From the IMG/VR virus record IMGVR_UViG_2671180986_000014: 35,930 nt of DNA, one strand, 5' to 3'. Numbering within the stretch: position 1 is the stretch's first letter; the number at the start of each line of letters is the position of its first letter. The notes below the pieces were generated by a model. The model was not told the origin of the DNA. It did no database searches and saw nothing but the letters and a program-made list of their open reading frames with translations. Both the position numbers and the translations under genes were made by a program. The DNA is from a virus (Duplodnaviria > Heunggongvirae > Uroviricota > Caudoviricetes). Positions 4,425 through 29,489 of the stretch are shown piece after piece.

Positions 4425-5609
4425 ATGAGTGAAACTCGTTTTCATGGTGCCCGTGTTACGGAAAGTACCAACCTGGTAACAGCGATTAATGATGTTGATT
4501 CCAGTGTTATCGGTATCGTGGCAACGGCGGATGATGCGGACGCGGAGCTGTTCCCGCTGAACAAGCCCACACTGCTGACCCGCGTCAATGACGTGCTGGG
4601 AAAATGCGGAACAACGGGGACGCTTTATCGTGCGCTTAAGGCCATCGCAGACCAGGTGAGCACAAAGGTGATCGTCGTTCGCGTGGCTGAACACAAAGAA
4701 GAAGACGGAAAAACGCAGGATCAACTGGTTATCGGTGGTTCTGAATCTGACGGCAGCTATACGGGGATGTATGCGCTGCTTGTTGCAGAGCAGGATGAAA
4801 GCATCGGATACCGTCCGCGTATTCTGGCCGCGCCGGAGCTGGACACGGAGGCGGTAACAAAATCCCTGTGCGTGATTGCAGGTAAACTGCGCGCGTTTGT
4901 GTATGCCTCATGTCACGGCTGTAACACGATGGCTGAGGCGATTACCTACCGCCAGAAATTCAACGAACGTGAGGTGATGCTCTTATGGCCGGACTTCATC
5001 GCCTGGAACCCGAAAAGTGGCAAAAACGAAACGTTCCCCGCGCCTGCCTATGCGTGCGGCCTTCGTGCGTACATTGACCATGAGCAGGGCTGGCACAAAT
5101 CATTGTCCAACGTTCCGGTTAAAAATGTGCTGGGGATGTCGAGGCATGTGTTCTGGTCGTTGCAGGCCGAAGACAGCGATGCCAACAGCCTCAACAACAA
5201 AGAAATCACGACCATTATTCGTCGTAACGGGTTCCGCTTCTGGGGCAACCGCACACCGGAAACGAACGCCTACATCTTTGAGGTGTATACCCGAACCGCA
5301 CAGGTGCTGGCTGATTCAATTGTGGAAGCGCAGTTTGAAACCATCGACAGTCCACTGACGCCTGCGAACGTGAAGGATGTTATCAGTGCCATCAGGGCAA
5401 GACTGGATTCACTGGTGACTGCCGGGAAACTGATTGGGGCGTCGTGCTGGTATGACGTGGTGGATAACGGCACCACGGATTTACGTCAGGGGCGCGTGCG
5501 TATTCGCTACAAATATACGCCCGTTCCGCCACTGGAAGATATGGAGCTTTACCAGACGTTTACTGATGAATTCTTTGGTCCCGCATTTGCGGTGCTGGGA
5601 GGTGTCTGA
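4425..5609 (+). CDS. FI: contractile tail sheath protein FI
   Basis: 394-aa ORF with P2 FI-like motifs (KLRAF, RELM..WPDF, IRRNGFRFWGNRT, YKYTPVPPLE); AAGGGG ribosome-binding site. Confidence 0.9.
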   Translation: MSETRFHGARVTESTNLVTAINDVDSSVIGIVATADDADAELFPLNKPTLLTRVNDVLGKCGTTGTLYRALKAIADQVSTKVIVVRVAEHKEEDGKTQDQLVIGGSESDGSYTGMYALLVAEQDESIGYRPRILAAPELDTEAVTKSLCVIAGKLRAFVYASCHGCNTMAEAITYRQKFNEREVMLLWPDFIAWNPKSGKNETFPAPAYACGLRAYIDHEQGWHKSLSNVPVKNVLGMSRHVFWSLQAEDSDANSLNNKEITTIIRRNGFRFWGNRTPETNAYIFEVYTRTAQVLADSIVEAQFETIDSPLTPANVKDVISAIRARLDSLVTAGKLIGASCWYDVVDNGTTDLRQGRVRIRYKYTPVPPLEDMELYQTFTDEFFGPAFAVLGGV

Positions 5610-6121
5610 TGGCTGTACCAAAAAATCTTCGTTTTTTTACGCTGTTTGTGGATGGTGAAAACGAAGTGGGTAAGGTGACGTCCGTCACTCTGCCTAAACT
5701 GACGCGCAAAACCGACAGCTACCGGGGTGGTGGCATGATGGGGGCAGTAAGTATTGATCTCGGCCTGGACGACTCCGCGCTTGATGCGAGCTTTGTCATG
5801 GGGGGCGCAGTTCGTGAGTTGTTCCTGAAGTATGGCGGCACGATTGACGGTACGCTGCTGCGTTTTGCGGGTGAATACTACACCGACGCTGAAAGCGACC
5901 TGTATGAAGTCGAAATGCGCGGACGTGTGACGGAAATTGATATGGGGGAAGCCAAACAGGGTGAGGCCACATCACACACTTACGCCATTAAAAACACCTA
6001 CTACAAGCTGAGTGTTAACGATCGCCCGTTGTGGGAGATTGACCTGCTGAACTTCATTTACCGGAAGGACGGCAGGGACATTGTGCCCGATCGCATCCGT
6101 TCCGCGCTCGGGCTTGGCTGA
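5609..6121 (+). CDS. FII: tail tube protein FII
   Basis: 170-aa ORF; start overlaps FI stop (TGATG); LPKLTRK...YRGGGM and FAGEYY resemble P2 FII. Confidence 0.9.
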   Translation: MAVPKNLRFFTLFVDGENEVGKVTSVTLPKLTRKTDSYRGGGMMGAVSIDLGLDDSALDASFVMGGAVRELFLKYGGTIDGTLLRFAGEYYTDAESDLYEVEMRGRVTEIDMGEAKQGEATSHTYAIKNTYYKLSVNDRPLWEIDLLNFIYRKDGRDIVPDRIRSALGLG

Positions 6122-6622: not shown

Positions 6623-9600
6623 GTGTGCTTTGAGCACATAGAAGACTTTGTGGCAGATATTGCCGTTATTTTTAACTGGTCGCCCGCCGAAATCTNNNNN
6701 NNNNNNNNNNNNNNNNNNNNNNNNNNNNNNNNNNNNNNNNNNNNNNNNNNNNNNNNNNNNNNNNNNNNNNNNNNNNNNNNNNNNNNNNNNNNNNNNNNNN
6801 NNNNNNNNNNNNNNNNNNNNNNNNNNNNNNNNNNNNNNNNNNNNNNNNNNNNNNNNNNNNNNNNNNNNNNNNNNNNNNNNNNNNNNNNNNNNNNNNNNNN
6901 NNNNNNNNNNNNNNNNNNNNNNNNNNNNNNNNNNNNNNNNNNNNNNNNNNNNNNNNNNNNNNNNNNNNNNNNNNNNNNNNNNNNNNNNNNNNNNNNNNNN
7001 NNNNNNNNNNNNNNNNNNNNNNNNNNNNNNNNNNNNNNNNNNNNNNNNNNNNNNNNNNNNNNNNNNNNNNNNNNNNNNNNNNNNNNNNNNNNNNNNNNNN
7101 NNNNNNNNNNNNNNNNNNNNNCTTGGCGGAGAGCTGAANNNNNNNNNNNNNNNNNNNNNNNNNNNNNNNNNNNNNNNNNNNNNNNNNNNNNNNNNNNNNN
7201 NNNNNNNNNNNNNNNNNNNNNNNNNNNNNNNNNNNNNNNNNNNNNNNNNNNNNNNNNNNNNNNNNNNNNNNNNNNNNNNNNNNNNNNNNNNNNNNNNNNN
7301 NNNNNNNNNNNNNNNNNNNNNNNNNNNNNNNNNNNNNNNNNNNNNNNNNNNNNNNNNNNNNNNNNNNNNNNNNNNNNNNNNNNNNNNNNNNNNNNNNNNN
7401 NNNNNNNNNNNNNNNNNNNNNNNNNNNNNNNNNNNNNNNNNNNNNNNNNNNNNNNNNNNNNNNNNNNNNNNNNNNNNNNNNNNNNNNNNNNNNNNNNNNN
7501 NNNNNNNNNNNNNNAAAACTTGGCTCTGAAACGCAGTTCACCGCAGGCGATGCCGCCAGTGGACAGGCATTTCTTTCAATGGCTGGCTTCACACCGCAGG
7601 CCATTCAGGCTGCGCTTCCCGGCGTGCTGAGCATGGCAACGGCTGGCGGTATGGACCTCGGCGAGACGGCAGATATTGGTTCCAATATCCTGACGCAGTT
7701 CGGCCTTTCTGCTGACCAGATGGACCGGGTCGGTGACACACTTACCGCAGCGTTTACCCGTACCAACACTGACCTTCGCGCACTGGGCGAAACCATGAAA
7801 TATGCAGGTCCGGTGGCGGGTAAGCTGGGAATATCGCTGGAGCAGGCCGCAGCGATGGCGGGCGTGCTGGCGAAGATGGGTATCAGGGGGAGTGATGCAG
7901 GTACAGCGTTGCGTAAAAGCCTGGCCAATCTGTCATCACCGCCAAAGGCAGCGGCAGAAGCACTGAAAGAGCTGGGGGTGTCAGTTGCTGACGCCAAAGG
8001 CAAAATGCGCCCGATGGAGAATGTGCTGGCCGATCTCTATAAAGCCACCCGCAAATACGGGGAGGTTGACCGGGTATCGTTCTTTAAGGACATTGCCGGA
8101 GAAGAGGCTTTCACATCATTTATGGGCCTCGTTGATGCGGCAGGTGACGGCTTCTTAGCCAAACTGAGAAAAGAACTTGAAGGCGCGCGCGGTGAGGCAG
8201 AACGCACGGCAAAGGTTATGGCCAATAACCTTGATGGCGACCTGAAATCACTCGGCAGTGCATGGGAAGGTCTGCGTATTCGCATCAGTGATCTGGTTGA
8301 CGGTCCGCTGCGTTCTGTCACGCAGTGGCTCACGCGGGTTGTCTCAAAGGTGACGGCGCTGGCGCAGGCCCACCCGGCACTGACGCGCCAGTTACTGATA
8401 GCGGGAGGCGCACTGCTGGCGACAACAGCAACGGTTGGTTCGTTGTCTCTGGTTATTGGGGTGCTTCACGGGAAGCTGGCTACGTTGCGTCTCGGTTTTT
8501 CTCTCCTGACCGGATCAATGAATGTTGTCAGGGTTCTGCCTGCATTATGGGGAATGGTGACGGGTTCCGTTTCTTTACTGGGAGGCGCTATCGGGGCGCT
8601 GTTCAGTCCGGTTGGATTGATTGCTGCTGCGTTTGTGGCTGNNNNNNNNNNNNNNNNNNNNNNNNNNNNNNNNNNNNNNNNNNNNNNNNNNNNNNNNNNN
8701 NNNNNNNNNNNNNNNNNNNNNNNNGGTTCTCATCTGGAAATACTGGGATCCCATCAGGGCATTTTTTGCCGGGGTGTTCAGCGGGATTATGGAAAGGCTG
8801 ACCCCGTTGCGCGAAACCTTTGAACGGTTTGGCCCTGTTTTTGATGTCGTGCGCGATGGGATTATTCAGGTCTTTAACTGGTTTAAATCGCTGCTGTCAC
8901 CGATGGAGTCCGGCAAGGAAACGCTGGATAAATGTACCAGTGCTGGCGAGATATTCGGTAACGTTCTTGGTGGCGCGCTACATCTTGTTCTGACGCCTGC
9001 AAAAATGTTGCTGGATACGCTGGCGTGGATACTTGAAAAACTCGGTGTGCTTCCGGATGAAGCGGAAAGGGCGAGAAAGAAAATCGAAGACGCACAGCGT
9101 GCGGCCATTCTTCAGGACAAGGTTGCTCTGTTTCAGGGAGACATTGCGAAAATCAATCCGCCGAAGTCTGCGGAAAATGGCAATGGCACCGGAGGCGATA
9201 AACCCAAAGACAACAAACCGCTCACAGACAGCAATACCGGCACGCTACGCAGACTCAGCAAAATTGCTGATAACACAGGTAAGCTGGTTGATGAGACAAA
9301 AAAACGTATTGGCCCCGGCGATATTGTCTTTAAGAACCTGCCCCGCGCACTTGCTGTTCGTGGGGAGTGGCAGGAGCGGAAGATTGCGCAGGTCAGTAAG
9401 CCTGCTTCCGCAATCAACATCACACCCGTGGTCCCGACTCCGCTGCCTCCGGCGCTGGTCCCTGTTGTTGCGGCCAGCTCCCGCCCGGTGGCGGAGGCCA
9501 TACGATCGCCAGTGGCATCAGTTCCTGCAACTTCCCGTAACCGGGAGCCTGTTGCCTCCGGATTTGGCGGTGAAATTCATGTTCATCTGCATAACGTTGT

Positions 9601-24026: not shown

Positions 24027-24990
24027 ATTCACTTTTGATGGTCCTTATCGCCTGACCGGGCATGATTTGCTGGACAATATGTACTGTGCTGATAACGGGC
24101 GGTGGTATGAAACCCCGGTGGACTGGTACGGTCTGGCAAGAGCCGCCCGGCAAACGTCCTGGCATCAGTCTGCGCTTTACTTTAAGCGCAATGTATTGCT
24201 CGGTTGCTACATCCCGCACCCGCTGCTTTCCCGGCAGGATTTTTCGGCGCTGGCGCTGGACTGGTTTGTGTTCGGTAACGCATTCCTTGAGCTTCGAAGC
24301 AGTATGCTCGGCGAACCGCTTAAATTACGGCACGCCCTGGCGAAATACATGCGACGCGGAAGCGATCTTGAATCATGGTGGTATGTGCAGGATGGTAAGG
24401 ACGCGTTTCAGTTTCGCCCTGGCAAAGTGTGCCACCTGATGAACCCGGATATTAACCAGGAAATCTACGGCATGCCGGAATATCTTGGCGCGTTACTCTC
24501 GGCCAGCCTGTCTCATTCGGCGGACATGTTCAGAAAACTGTATTACGACAACGGATCCCATGCCGGGTGCATCATCTACATCGGTGCAGCGCAGGTAAAC
24601 CGCGAAAGCATGGACTCCCTGAAAGAAACGCTACAGGGTGCACGTGGTGGTGGTGCGTTTAAAAACGTGCTCATTCATGCGCCCAACGGGGGCAAAGAGG
24701 GGGTGCAAATTTTGCCGTTCCAGCAGATCACTGCAAAGGATGAGTTCATGAATGTGAAGGCGGCATCCCGTGATGATGTGCTGGCTGCGCACCGCGTTCC
24801 GCCGCAACTGATGGGGGCGATGCCGGGCGAAAAAAGTGCGTTTGGTGATGTGGAGAAGGCCGCGCGGGTTTACGCAATTAACGAGCTGATGCCCGTTATG
24901 GAGGCCATGAAGCACATCAATGACTGGCTTGGCGAAGAGGTGATCCGCTTTAACTCTTATGCTCTTCTTGATGAAAAAACAGCCCCGTGA
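24027..24990 (+). CDS. Q: portal protein Q, visible C-terminal ~320 aa; start masked
   Basis: in frame to TGA 24988-24990; length and position match P2 gpQ. Confidence 0.75.
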
Positions 24991-25009
24991 TGGGGCTGTC
25001 CTTTTTACC
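24974..25009. terminator. bidirectional rho-independent terminator shared by Q and the convergent gene
   Basis: A6 - cagcccc - gtga - ggggctg - T-tract; both stop codons lie within the structure. Confidence 0.7.
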
Positions 25010-25529
25010 AGAGTTGAACCATTTTCTGGGTGCCGTCAGGCTTGAGATTATCAATTTCAGAGAGAACGTAATATTGAATGGCTTCACAAACGGTGGTGTA
25101 TGGTGAATTACCTTCTTTAAGTGGCACGATATTATTATTAACGCGAACCTGTATTTCATCGTTATACATTGCGATCGAAAGAGGAGTATGCACGAACGCG
25201 ACTTCGCCAGGTGTGTCGTCAACTACTGTCTCAATGCTAAAAGTCAGTTTTCGCTCATCATTGCTGCCCCGTGCTTTGGGGGTAGCGGCAGGGATCTGGG
25301 ATAAAGGCATTCTGCGAAATCCGTCAGCCGCTTCCAGTCCGCATGAAACGTAATGCTGGTGATTACCGTCGCTATCCGTCCATGTCTGTGATGGCAGATC
25401 CAGCGAGATTTCATAAGCATCAACAATGCCCTGGGCAAGGCGTACAAGCGGGGTCAGATCTTCATTGCGGCGAAAACTCTCCTTTACCTGCTCTCGTTTT
25501 TCTCGTAACTGCTTGTAATTAATGACCAT
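25005..25529 (-). CDS. hypothetical protein, paralog 1 of a tandem pair (174 aa)
   Basis: GGAGG ribosome-binding site before ATG 25527-25529; shares YE..L.LPS..W.D.DG..H.YV..GL with paralog 2. Confidence 0.6.
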   Translation of the reverse strand: MVINYKQLREKREQVKESFRRNEDLTPLVRLAQGIVDAYEISLDLPSQTWTDSDGNHQHYVSCGLEAADGFRRMPLSQIPAATPKARGSNDERKLTFSIETVVDDTPGEVAFVHTPLSIAMYNDEIQVRVNNNIVPLKEGNSPYTTVCEAIQYYVLSEIDNLKPDGTQKMVQLW

Positions 25530-25630
25530 AAGACAGCCTCCAGTGATTTCTTTGCTCGTATTTTGCGCTTATGAAGTGTGGTCGGCAAGGTGCCGCATCA
25601 CTGACGCGCTTCGCTTGTCTGCTGCTTCGC

Positions 25631-25719
25631 CGGGGCATAAANNNNNNNNNNNNNNNNNNNNNNNNNNNNNNNNNNNNNNNNNNNNNNNNNNNNNNNNNNN
25701 NNNNNNNNTTTATGCCCCG
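25631..25719. repeat. 11-bp inverted repeat (cggggcataaa / tttatgccccg) flanking a 67-N run between the paralogs
   Basis: read directly on both sides of N 25642-25708. Confidence 0.6.
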
Positions 25720-25734
25720 ACTCTCCAGCTCTGT

Positions 25735-26238
25735 TTAACGAAGTGCTGATGGCGCGCGCTTTTTCAGGTGATTAGCGATGTGCTTTTTCACATGCATAAC
25801 AACATCGCCCCAGGCTTCTTCACTGGGTTTATTGATAAATACGCGAACAGAAATATCGTCTTCCACCCGGACTCTCAGAGACACCCGTTCCGCATCCACT
25901 GAATATAATTCAAGTGCAATAACCACGCTTACGGGGTAGCTGCAATCAGATGACTTAACCCAGGTTCGCACGGCCATGCGAAAAATATTGTCTGGTGTAG
26001 ATGCGATATTGTGGACTGAAAGCGGACTAAAATCCGCTGCCGTCTTACATGGCAAGCCTGTCTCCACGTAGCGGTGCAGGTCGCCATCATCGTCTTCCCA
26101 GTACATGGATGGAAGCCCCAGCCATTCTTCATAGAAATCAATCAGCCTTGCTGCTTCATCCCGCAAAATTTGCGCTGCCTCAGCGCGTTTTTCTTCAGCT
26201 TCACGATTGATCTGGCATAAATCATTAAAGTGGCTCAT
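25735..26238 (-). CDS. hypothetical protein, paralog 2 (167 aa from ATG 26236-26238)
   Basis: AAGAGGA ribosome-binding site before the internal ATG; track start further upstream is not supported. Confidence 0.6.
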   Translation of the reverse strand: MSHFNDLCQINREAEEKRAEAAQILRDEAARLIDFYEEWLGLPSMYWEDDDGDLHRYVETGLPCKTAADFSPLSVHNIASTPDNIFRMAVRTWVKSSDCSYPVSVVIALELYSVDAERVSLRVRVEDDISVRVFINKPSEEAWGDVVMHVKKHIANHLKKRAPSALR

Positions 26239-26659
26239 GACATTATCCTCTTTTGAGTTGATGCCTGCCGCTATTCTGGCTTTGCCCGAACCCCCCTGCA
26301 AGCTGGTTATTCCATCAGATAATTTCACAACATCTCCAGCCCTGTAGCCATTATCGCCGGGCTGGTACTTACGTAACCCCGCAGTGCTGACTGCATGTTT
26401 CTCGCTGCCTCAGTGCGATTTTGACGGTCTTACCTTTCAGCCCATCAAATCAGAACCCCTCACGTCTTTTTCACGCTCAGCGTGAGAAATACAGCCATTC
26501 TGTTGTGTCGCTGCGACATCGTTCAGGGAATGCTATTTACCCCCTGAAACGCGGGCTGTTCCCCCGTCACCTGCGCGCAGAAAAAACGCGTTTTTTTGTG
26601 CACGCACGGATCCTTGACGGATCCAGTCGCCACGCGGGCCGGAAGGGTAAAAAGTTGTT

Positions 26660-26706
26660 CAAAAAAATTGTGCAAATTTGTGCACTATTGTGCGGTGTAT
26701 AAAATG
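26660..26706 (+). promoter_or_regulatory. candidate phd/doc promoter-operator: three TTGTGC repeats at 10-bp spacing followed by a TATAAA-like -10
   Basis: TTGTGC at 26668, 26678, 26688; gtataaaat at 26696-26704; TTGACG -35 candidate at 26614. Confidence 0.3.
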
Positions 26707-26767
26707 AAAATATGGCGGTGTTATTACTGCCCAACAAGCCGTTATACTTACGTTATGGGCGTGCATA

Positions 26768-27124
26768 ATGGAAATGAATATGAAAACTGTAACTGATGAT
26801 GAATTTCGTGAGAACCTGAGTGAAATTCTGGATTACCTTTCTTCCGGTGGCAGTGTCGTTATCACGGCGCAGGGAGGGAAGGATGTTGTTCTTGCTGGTT
26901 CTGATCTTAGTCCTGAAATACGGGCTGTCCTTGGCAAAACCAAAAAACTGCGGGATCAAATAAACAAAATGAAGCAACCACTCTTAATAAATGCAGTGAG
27001 AGATCTGGAAAAACGTCATCCAGCTCTTGTCGCACAGAGAAAAAAAGGATTGTCTTTTGAAGATGCAATGAAGCGTACAAGAGAAAAACATGCGGATATC
27101 ATTAAAAAGCTTGAGGATAACTGA
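26768..27124 (+). CDS. Phd/YefM-family antitoxin with C-terminal extension
   Basis: N-terminal region (FRENLSEILDYL...VVITAQGGKDVVLAG) has the Phd/YefM pattern; stop overlaps doc start (TGATG). Confidence 0.65.
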   Translation: MEMNMKTVTDDEFRENLSEILDYLSSGGSVVITAQGGKDVVLAGSDLSPEIRAVLGKTKKLRDQINKMKQPLLINAVRDLEKRHPALVAQRKKGLSFEDAMKRTREKHADIIKKLEDN

Positions 27125-27531
27125 TGGACATAGTGTTTTTGTCAAAAGAACAAGTAGAACGTATCCATGCTGAAACTTTACCCCAGAGCGGAAATGCCAA
27201 TGACGGGCTACTTGAAGGTGCTTTAAATCGCGTCAGGACACTACACTACTATGAAGGGGTTGATGATATTCATGCTCTGGCTGCTATGTATTTGATTGGT
27301 ATAGCCAAGGCTCATGCCTTTCATGATGGGAATAAACGCACAGCTTTTCAGGCTGCATCAATATTTTTAATGATGAACTCTTCCGAACTTTCAAACTCCC
27401 TGCTGCTGGTTAAATTAACGGTGTTTTCAGCAATGGGGATAGCTACCCTTGAGGAAGTTACCTTTGCTTTGAAATTGCTGTCTGATTATGGCAATGAATT
27501 AATCAGCGACTACGAAGAAGATTATATTTAA
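27124..27531 (+). CDS. doc: Doc (death-on-curing) toxin, Fic/Doc family
   Basis: Fic/Doc motif HAFHDGNKRTAF; 135 aa; translationally coupled to the antitoxin. Confidence 0.8.
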   Translation: MDIVFLSKEQVERIHAETLPQSGNANDGLLEGALNRVRTLHYYEGVDDIHALAAMYLIGIAKAHAFHDGNKRTAFQAASIFLMMNSSELSNSLLLVKLTVFSAMGIATLEEVTFALKLLSDYGNELISDYEEDYI

Positions 27532-27697: not shown

Positions 27698-28033
27698 TCA
27701 TTCATGCGTTTTTTCTTCATGGTCTGTCACTTCTCTCCTGATAACTTCATTGCACAAATCAACGCACTCATTGCAGATGTAAACAGACGGTCCGGCAATC
27801 ACCTTTGTGACTTCGTACTGGGATTTATTGCAGAAGCTGCAATAAATCGTCTCCTCACCTGAAGTCCATGTTTTGCTGGTTTCGCCAGACATCAGTTGTT
27901 TGAGGTCTTTTTCACGACGAAGAACTATCTGGCCACATTCAGCTATTTTTTGGATGTTGACATTTTCTTCTTTCGCCAGCGCTTCCATCCGCTCAATCAG
28001 TCGCTGCGCTTTTTCTCTGTCAATGCGTTGCAT
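27698..28033 (-). CDS. small protein with C-terminal ClpX-type C4 zinc-finger domain and N-terminal helical region
   Basis: [38 protein letters not shown] closely resembles the ClpX N-terminal zinc-binding domain; AAGGGGG ribosome-binding site. Confidence 0.7.
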
Positions 28034-29034
28034 TGTGTCCCCCTTGTTTATGTTCCCGGGTTAAAGTCATCAGGGCGGATGCGCCCTGATGTTGTGTTAT
28101 TCGGGAAATAACGCCCGGATATTTCCGGCCATCTGACTGGTTATCTGTGCGGTTGATACTGGCTGTGACGCGGGGCGTTCTGTCCTGGTTTGTGTCACTG
28201 ATAACGCTTCATCANNNNNNNNNNNNNNNNNNNNNNNNNNNNNNNNNNNNNNNNNNNNNNNNNNNNNNNNNNNNNNNNNNNNNNNNNNNNNNNNNNNNNN
28301 NNNNNNNNNNNNNNNNNNNNNNNNNNNNNNNNNNNNNNNNNNNNNNNNNNNNNNNNNNNNNNNNNNNNNNNNNNNNNNNNNNNNNNNNNNNNNNNNNNNN
28401 NNNNNNNNNNNNNNNNNNNNNNNNNNNNNNNNNNNNNNNNNNNNNNNNNNNNNNNNNNNNNNNNNNNNNNNNNNNNNNNNNNNNNNNNNNNNNNNNNNNN
28501 NNNNNNNNNNNNNNNNNNNNNNNNNNNNNNNNNNNNNNNNNNNNNNNNNNNNNNNNNNNNNNNNNNNNNNNNNNNNNNNNNNNNNNNNNNNNNNNNNNNN
28601 NNNNNNNNNNNNNNNNNNNNNNNNNNNNNNNNNNNNNNNNNNNNNNNNNNNNNNNNNNNNNNNNNNNNNNNNNNNNNNNNNNNNNNNNNNNNNNNNNNNN
28701 NNNNNNNNNNNNNNNNNNNNNNNNNNNNNNNNNNNNNNNNNNNNNNNNNNNNNNNNNNNNNNNNNNNNNNNNNNNNNNNNNNNNNNNNNNNNNNNNNNNN
28801 NNNNNNNNNNNNNNNNNNNNNNNNNNNNNNNNNNNNNNNNNNNNNNNNNNNNNNNNNNNNNNNNNNNNNNNNNNNNNNNNNNNNNNNNNNNNNNNNNNNN
28901 NNNNNNNNNNNNNNNNNNNNNNNNNNNNNNNNNNNNNNNNNNNNNNNNNNNNNNNNNNNNNNNNNNNNNNNNNNNNNNNNNNNNNNNNNNNNNNNNNNNN
29001 NNNNNNNNNNNNNNNNNNNNNNNNNNNNNNNNNN

Positions 29035-29489
29035 CCAGCCGGAATGGATTCAGGCATAACCCGTACGTTACGGATAGTAAATGCTTCGCTGTTCTGGTAC
29101 TCCACCGGGCGCATAACGTTCGCTTTTTTGCGGCTGATGTTGGCCATGTCCGGCTGTGCGTTTGTGTCGAAATACTCGCTCAGTGGCAGGGTGACAACCA
29201 CATCCACCTCCTGTGGCGTGATGCCTGATTTGACCAGCGCGTGATGAATGGCAATGACATTCACATCGCTGTACTGGTATTGCGTGTCGGTCGTCTGGAC
29301 AAAGCGATCGCTGACCGGATCAAAACCATAGCGCACGCCATCAAGCATGTAGTTCGCGGGCTGCGTGCCACCGAACGGCGCAGACCATTCCGACTTGAAG
29401 CTGTTCGGGCTGATGGCGTTGCGGCGTTCGCCGTTCTCAGTCCATGCCAGCTTGATGTTGGTGGAGCCGTCGTCGATACAAATTTTCAT
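29035..29489 (-). CDS. parM: ParM/StbA-family actin-like partition ATPase, visible N-terminal ~150 aa; rest masked by 820 N
   Basis: MKICIDDGSTNIKLAW...SPNSFK...YSDVNVIAIHHAL...VMPESIPA tracks plasmid R1 ParM closely; AAGGAAAA ribosome-binding site. Confidence 0.8.

Follow-up and report, generated by a model that had tools for sequence, protein, structure and literature searches.

Paralogous phrog_5091 genes as apparently independent cassettes beside the portal gene of a P2-like prophage

In phage P2 the accessory genes old and tin occupy the interval between replication gene A and cos, with transcription running away from cos, and 187 nt separate cos from portal gene Q. The Tin protein binds and poisons a component of the incoming phage. 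Rousset et al. (2022; PMC9122126) defined the hotspot of P2-like phages as the interval between gpA and gpQ, and a number of candidate systems cloned from this hotspot protected against phages (PMC9122126). Two minus-strand genes from the same interval, here called geneA (25005-25529) and geneB (25735-26238), were analysed in IMG/VR record IMGVR_UViG_2671180986_000014, a stretch of 35,930 nucleotides (the window) that was identified as a P88-type, P2-like prophage (genus Xuanwuvirus). Both genes encoded members of the phage protein family phrog_5091, and both are dispensable cassettes that are distributed independently of each other and behave as mobile morons, judging from their occurrence in related prophages.

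Like old, tin and other gpA-gpQ cargo, the two genes were accessory, non-essential and situated in the Q-A interval. The first-pass annotation had placed them in the slot that old and tin occupy; the Q-A interval was correct, but geneA and geneB lay on the Q side of a putative cos block and in this differed from old and tin. There was no sequence relationship between P2 Tin and the phrog_5091 profile (hhalign probability 0.4%). Old was assessed through PADLOC and Pfam models only, and neither the geneA nor the geneB protein matched any of these.

The gene order in the window was: terminase gene P and portal gene Q (plus strand, ending at 24990), geneA, geneB, a non-coding block, phd/doc, an open reading frame (ORF) with a ClpX zinc finger, ParM, and replication gene A (minus strand). 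The non-coding block (26311-26695; 385 bp) lay between the slot of geneB and geneA and the variable A-side cargo. It was 98% identical to E. coli 1190 and was kept in every P88-like locus, whatever cargo flanked it. Because of this conservation, and because the ends of the linear P88_4B11 record (LR595891) mapped to 26649|26650, we infer that cos lies inside the block. The 19-nt cos sequence of P2 was absent from the block, even with 3 mismatches; a local alignment of the P2 cos region with 26560-26720 was no better than with shuffled sequence, and the best collinear blastn match was weak (E=0.02). These comparisons suggest that the P88-type cos either differs from P2 cos or is inverted. The weak similarities to P2 ran in the opposite orientation relative to Q (window 26311-26695; locus L016, 1-420; the end of locus L017). 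With cos so placed, geneA and geneB would lie between cos and Q and probably not on the old/tin side, and phd/doc probably takes the position and orientation equivalent to old/tin.

Paralogy and family membership

Both genes were intact. The geneA ORF (25005-25529, minus strand) encoded 174 amino acids (aa; isoelectric point [pI] 5.0) and was preceded by the Shine-Dalgarno sequence GGAGG at 25537-25541, 7 nt ahead of its ATG. The geneB ORF (25735-26238, minus strand) encoded 167 aa from an ATG (pI 5.4), with AAGAGGA at 26246-26252, likewise 7 nt ahead. The description of two intact minus-strand genes of these lengths, each with a ribosome-binding site, was therefore borne out.

A pairwise BLASTP comparison of the two proteins returned 22 identities over 54 positions (E=3e-8). 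Against the hidden Markov model (HMM) of phrog_5091, the geneA protein matched at 5.1e-66 (residues 1-168, profile positions 1-164) and the geneB protein at 1.6e-52 (residues 1-166, the whole 164-position profile). In an alignment of 17 sequences, types A and B aligned end to end with 24-25% identity. By these matches geneA and geneB are true paralogues, homologous over their full length. The first-pass annotation had proposed diverged paralogues with a common core of 31 residues; the paralogy held, and the homology extended beyond that core to the whole of both proteins. One residue of the proposed core motif, a histidine, was not an aligned identity, since type A read DGNHQHYV and type B read DGDLHRYV at this place.

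The two proteins had also been reported as belonging to no recognised family. This held for Pfam, NCBIfam, PADLOC and the PDB, none of which offered a characterised family; in PHROG both fell into phrog_5091 (types A and B), a family listed there with "unknown function". Scans of both proteins with Pfam, NCBIfam and PADLOC found no match, the sole hit being Complex1_LYR at E=0.17, which was regarded as noise, and no defence HMM of PADLOC-DB v2.0.0 reached E<=1 with either protein. Searching the family profile against PDB sequences gave nothing below E=0.29, and phrog_5091 had no solved structure. A phmmer search of the PDB with type B found no match. With type A it found designed helical-repeat proteins (residues 125-168, E=2.7e-7), which were rejected as a compositional similarity to idealised designs. 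Pfam applied to 106 collected relatives gave four chance matches, each in a single member.

The family was already catalogued, both as phrog_5091 and as "hypothetical" entries in a published hotspot table (PMC9122126), where the type-A protein WP_000236495 appears 167 times in Table S5. This table is part of the supplement; neither WP_000236495 nor phrog_5091 was found in any paper by full-text literature search. When 1.84 billion cluster representatives were searched exhaustively with the family profile (E<=0.001), 119 clusters at 50% identity were recovered, nearly all of them single-domain proteins of 150-180 aa. All 106 collected relatives matched phrog_5091 and no other PHROG. The profile also gave ten matches in a cadherin/RTX adhesin of 3,099 aa and five in an immunoglobulin-repeat protein of 1,292 aa; these matches were rejected as motif convergence on a beta-strand followed by an aspartate-rich turn.

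Four residues were near-invariant in the 106-member alignment: Tyr36, Leu40, Trp47 and Tyr57 (type-B numbering). A TVVDDSPRGG turn was present in many distant members, while types A and B partly lacked it, and the family alignment contained no conserved polar constellation suggestive of catalysis. The geneA and geneB proteins, presumably cytoplasmic, were small (about 19 kDa) and acidic, with a net charge of about -7 and pI values close to the family median of 5.2. By eye, both N-termini were highly charged and neither protein contained a hydrophobic segment; no signal peptide or membrane segment was seen in either.

Both genes showed purifying selection. The ratio of nonsynonymous to synonymous substitution rates (dN/dS) was 0.06-0.22 overall, among orthologues 60-98% identical: 0.08-0.22 for geneA and 0.06-0.21 for geneB. 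On these ratios both are functional genes. With a G+C content of 46.7% (geneA) and 48.0% (geneB), they were less GC-rich than the window as a whole (52.6%) and than the neighbouring Q gene (54%).

Distribution of types A and B and the element between them

In total, 5,426 complete E. coli genomes were surveyed, and 1,146 of them contained a P88-type junction, i.e., the conserved block through to Q. The slot was empty in 712 of these genomes (62%), held type A in 397 and type B in 32, and held the tandem in none, a tandem being counted where a single place covered at least 80% of the 1.9-kb query across both genes. Type A was thus carried by about 7% of all complete E. coli genomes (397/5,426), including the sequence type 131 (ST131) strain EC958. 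The 47 IMG/VR loci gave a similar division: 41 contained type A alone, six contained type B alone next to the portal gene, and none contained both. The type-A orthologues of both collections were portal-adjacent and 94-98% identical. An empty slot was also present in the sequenced genomes of phages P88 and P88_4B11 (LR595891, genus Xuanwuvirus).

The B+A tandem was found only in the window with its identical contig L073 and in two further loci (L003 and L004), where it recurred as a diverged version with 60% and 84% protein identity. The exact geneB protein of the window was carried by four contigs. The window copies of A and B were each 98% identical to stand-alone copies. Since the genes mostly occur alone and the window copies are this close to stand-alone ones, the tandem is best explained as a recombinational stack, and not as a local duplication or an obligate system. 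A coupled pair, as the first-pass annotation had it, does not fit loci in which each gene stands beside the portal far more often alone than with the other, both in E. coli and in IMG/VR. Nor did the two resemble a type II toxin-antitoxin pair: the proteins were paralogous to each other and each stood alone in most loci. Because the slot can be empty, hold A, hold B or, rarely, hold B+A, the genes are dispensable for virion production and neither depends on the other.

The region between the two genes (25530-25734, minus strand) contained a conserved perfect stem-loop and a conserved 5' leader of geneA. An 11-bp inverted repeat around a masked stretch had been reported here. The repeat was real, with arms CGGGGCATAAA at 25631-25641 and TTTATGCCCCG at 25709-25719, but the 67 N between the arms (25642-25708) were an artefact. 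In the unmasked contig L073 the intergenic region was 141 nt long and contained CGGGGCATAAA-TTT-TTTATGCCCCG, with a loop of 3 nt, and the loop was likewise short in five of five other aligned relatives. When the region was folded as RNA, the 11-bp arms extended to a perfect stem of 13 bp, and the minimum free energy of the region was -50.7 kcal/mol (z = -3.6).

The element GGAGCTGGAGAGT-CGGGGCATAAA-loop-TTTATGCCCCG-GCGAAGCAGCAGACAAGCGAAGCGCGTCAG was present in every arrangement of the slot: empty, A, B and B+A. geneB was inserted on the cos side of this element, while geneA, with its own leader of about 90 nt, was inserted on the Q side. No U-tract followed the stem on either strand, and the terminator scan made no call, even on unmasked L073. 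Because it lacks a U-tract, the stem-loop is not a canonical Rho-independent terminator. An Rfam search of 24900-26850 found no match. Candidate functions for the stem-loop are an RNA-stabilising hairpin, a protein-binding palindrome or a recombination junction.

Members of the family in Peduoviridae of E. coli, Salmonella, Edwardsiella and Trabulsiella directly adjoined the portal gene, in one case beside a portal that was only 30% identical. Distant members occupied other typical moron sites in unrelated temperate phages: a stx-like slot with the late antiterminator on one side and the holin on the other (L010, L069, L070), the interval between lysis genes and terminase (L008, L009, L013), and a baseplate operon (L011). 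In another P2-like prophage (L071, 5747-7359) the member started 12 nt after ogr and was followed by a HicA/HicB toxin-antitoxin pair. A lambdoid prophage of Lelliottia (L009) contained two diverged phrog_5091 paralogues (5319-5858 and 7950-8528) about 2 kb apart, so that paralogues are also stacked, independently, in a phage that is not P2-like. The L009 paralogues were separated by three genes, one of them encoding a methyltransferase. Overall, the family was essentially confined to prophages; five records among 50,697 phage genomes contained it, as did two plasmid records, which apparently carried the prophage.

Predicted fold and possible roles

The AlphaFold2 model of type B, built from a deep alignment, was confident (mean predicted local distance difference test [pLDDT] 92.9; predicted template modelling score 0.86). 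Its elements were a long N-terminal helix (3-40), a C-terminal helix (139-159) and an antiparallel sheet of seven strands. The model of type A, for which a shallow alignment was used, had the same architecture at a pLDDT of 77, with the N-terminal helix broken into a hairpin and a disordered loop at 83-89. The predicted fold was a two-layer alpha/beta sandwich. In the model, the four near-invariant residues fell where the N-terminal helix ends and in the beta-hairpin that comes next, and they were read as probable core-packing residues.

Structural neighbours were weak: the FP domains of Fbxo7/PI31 (PDB 4l9c, 4ouh), the alpha and beta subunits of actin-capping protein, and Mediator Med17. Other weak matches were to a type III secretion chaperone/YbjN-like group and to toxin-immunity proteins (1s28, 3kxy, 4h5b, 7zhm). 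The chaperone/YbjN-like and immunity proteins scored weakly and shared no motifs with the family, and no gene for a partner effector or toxin lay near geneA or geneB. DarA of phage P1, a head-internal anti-restriction protein (PDB 9vz0_I), was larger and only weakly similar, with 7-10% identity. Foldseek found nothing at E<=0.001 in the BFVD library of viral structures. The predicted fold class would be that of small protein-binding or dimerising modules.

With modest confidence, geneA and geneB are read as cassettes that were acquired separately and belong to a single uncharacterised family of phage morons, phrog_5091, whose products are binding proteins used in conflict. Each protein would work stoichiometrically through binding to a partner protein, probably in dimeric form and via its exposed sheet. 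The binding would serve phage-host or phage-phage conflict, either by excluding a competitor or by neutralising a host defence, and a phage with two diverged paralogues would have two distinct binding specificities. A non-enzymatic binding role is suggested by the confident models, the acidic pI, the near-invariant residues read as core-packing and the absence of a catalytic motif.

Several points weigh against this interpretation. Type A was near-invariant (95-98% identity) and always in the same place, which would suit a gene tied to a lineage better than defence cargo that is swapped rapidly. The putative conflict role and binding mechanism are deduced from position, fold class and precedent, and the structural matches were too weak for assignment to any superfamily. 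A sigma-70 scan found no promoter at threshold upstream of either gene. The pattern TGT-N12-ACA, which we take to be the Ogr-type late-promoter site, occurred 7 times against 7.15 expected by chance.

A more specific proposal is that phrog_5091 is a new family of single-protein conflict factors, acting in exclusion or as inhibitors of host immunity purely through protein binding, with a fold unseen in characterised defence or anti-defence proteins and with stacked paralogues, found independently in P2-like and lambdoid prophages, that broaden the range of targets. We put this forward tentatively, as conceivable rather than probable. If an exclusion or counter-defence role is true, the family would add a new, widespread single-gene module to the repertoire of the P2-like hotspot, and the natural series of empty, A, B and B+A slots would be a ready-made allelic set for tests of a role in conflict. 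If there is no conflict phenotype, phrog_5091 would be a well-delimited family of hypothetical morons and nothing more. Type A is widespread in E. coli, yet it has no annotation, Pfam model or structural relative. It is reasonable to treat this common, conserved and confidently modelled family as a modest lead and not as a new defence system.

Two forms of the conflict role differ in when the proteins would be made. In the first, exclusion from the lysogen, A and/or B would bind and poison a component of an incoming phage; the location in the hotspot, the polymorphism in presence and absence and the precedent of Tin speak for this form. Several of the observations above fit anti-phage defence or superinfection exclusion of this kind: some systems cloned from the gpA-gpQ hotspot were protective (PMC9122126), otherwise similar prophages differed in carrying the genes, the G+C content lay below that of the phage, a Phd/Doc toxin-antitoxin pair was neighbouring cargo, and two diverged paralogues would suit two target specificities. 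Against these stand the lack of a PADLOC match and of similarity to Tin, the absence of a promoter above the scan threshold, and the location on the Q side of the putative cos block, away from the swapping cargo. Elsewhere, moreover, the family was co-oriented in late operons, which points to expression in the lytic cycle rather than in the lysogen. WP_000236495, although listed by Rousset et al., was not found in their table of tested systems (PMC9122126). Lysogen-expressed defence is accordingly a possible but doubtful account of the two genes.

Three points speak for a lytic-phase protein, e.g., one for counter-defence: distant members lie in late operons, the proteins are small and acidic, and no promoter could be recognised. 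Such a protein, made late or packaged in the virion, would be small and acidic and would block an immune sensor or effector of the host, for example in systems that sense portal, terminase or capsid. The non-enzymatic character of the proteins, the adjacent portal and terminase genes and the recurrence of two paralogues in a single phage are consistent with this. The fold similarities, however, were at noise level for homology and BFVD held no match; in P88-like phages the gene was convergent with the late P-Q operon and would need its own promoter, and the majority of P88-junction E. coli genomes did without it (62%). We consider counter-defence unlikely.

A role as an accessory factor for DNA packaging or virion assembly, tied to cos, portal or terminase, would agree with the constant position immediately beside the portal gene and the putative cos block in Peduoviridae of E. 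coli, Salmonella and Edwardsiella, and with the several lambdoid homologues just upstream of terminase genes. It is highly improbable because closely related P88-type junctions were empty, including those of the sequenced phages P88 and P88_4B11, and other homologues lay far from packaging genes (after the antiterminator, after ogr, and in a baseplate cluster).

An obligate A-B heterodimer, functional only as a pair, is highly improbable because of the stand-alone distribution (397 A and 32 B against no tandem in E. coli; 41 and 6 against none in IMG/VR) and given the very stable stem-loop and separate leader between the genes, even though the genes are adjacent on one strand, a diverged tandem exists in L003 (60% and 84% identity), and the structural neighbours include modules that heterodimerise between paralogues (Fbxo7/PI31 FP domains, capping-protein alpha/beta).

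Flanking features and masked runs

At the junction of Q and geneA (24974-25004, no strand assigned) lay a GC-rich hairpin flanked by an A-run and, on its other side, by a T-run. The plus-strand terminator scan called 24979-24999 followed by CCTTTTT, and the same hairpin was listed as an inverted repeat (24974-25004). It was conserved in L001 and L002, and the stop codon of Q (24988-24990) fell within its loop. The hairpin looks like a bidirectional intrinsic terminator common to the convergent genes Q and geneA.

The geneB frame extended in frame upstream of the ATG (26239-26328, minus strand) to a GTG start at 26328. The start methionine of MSHF... was common to all type-B relatives, and the family N-termini aligned at the ATG. 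The upstream sequence GTGAAATTATCTGA was kept even where geneB was missing (L001, L002, L016). Because of the shared MSHF start and the conservation of GTGAAATTATCTGA in loci lacking geneB, the 167-aa reading of geneB is taken as correct, and the extension is most likely untranslated. Two copies of a 20-nt direct repeat, 90% identical, were found at 26173-26192 and 26403-26422 (CGCTGCCTCAGCGCGTTTTT and CGCTGCCTCAGTGCGATTTT), the first inside geneB and the second in the conserved non-coding block. The second copy overlapped the sole stretch with weak similarity to the P2 cos flank. A 13-nt direct repeat flanking geneB is probably due to chance.

Between 20603 and 30025, all unmasked blocks of the window were matched at 100% identity by contig L073 (Logan ERR5976076). 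All nine N-runs compared over this range exceeded the length of the true sequence in L073. Besides the run between the stem-loop arms (67 vs 3 nt), the lengths in the window and in L073 were 45 vs 13, 406 vs 405, 555 vs 467, 73 vs 34, 295 vs 240 and 820 vs 703 nt. At a run of 31 N inside the terminase gene, L073 had no sequence at all, and two N-runs in gene A with the 6 nt between them spanned 728 nt in the window and 574 nt in L073. Since the N-runs do not have their true length, reading frames and spacings across them are untrustworthy, and the same holds for features built on N-runs.

On the A side of the conserved block the window contained phd (26768-27124, plus strand) and doc (27124-27531, plus strand). 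This toxin-antitoxin pair adjoined a minus-strand ORF of 111 aa (27698-28033) with little beyond a ClpX C4 zinc finger (zf-C4_ClpX, 3e-17). Because Phd of phage P1 is degraded by ClpXP, a free ClpX N-domain might modulate turnover of the antitoxin. E. coli 1190 had the same arrangement of Phd/Doc and ClpX zinc finger, which also recurred in Table S5 of Rousset et al. (PMC9122126). In L003 a DUF3800 protein on the A side of cos (4597-5307, minus strand) matched the PADLOC candidate PDC-M04A at 1.2e-30; by this match the neighbouring A-side slot does appear to carry candidate defence genes. Between the hotspot cargo and gene A lay a plasmid partition module of the ParM/StbB type (28212-29489 of the window and beyond it downstream, in part masked; L001 8559-9834), in agreement with the report of Rousset et al. 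that about one quarter of P2-like phages carry a partition system (PMC9122126).

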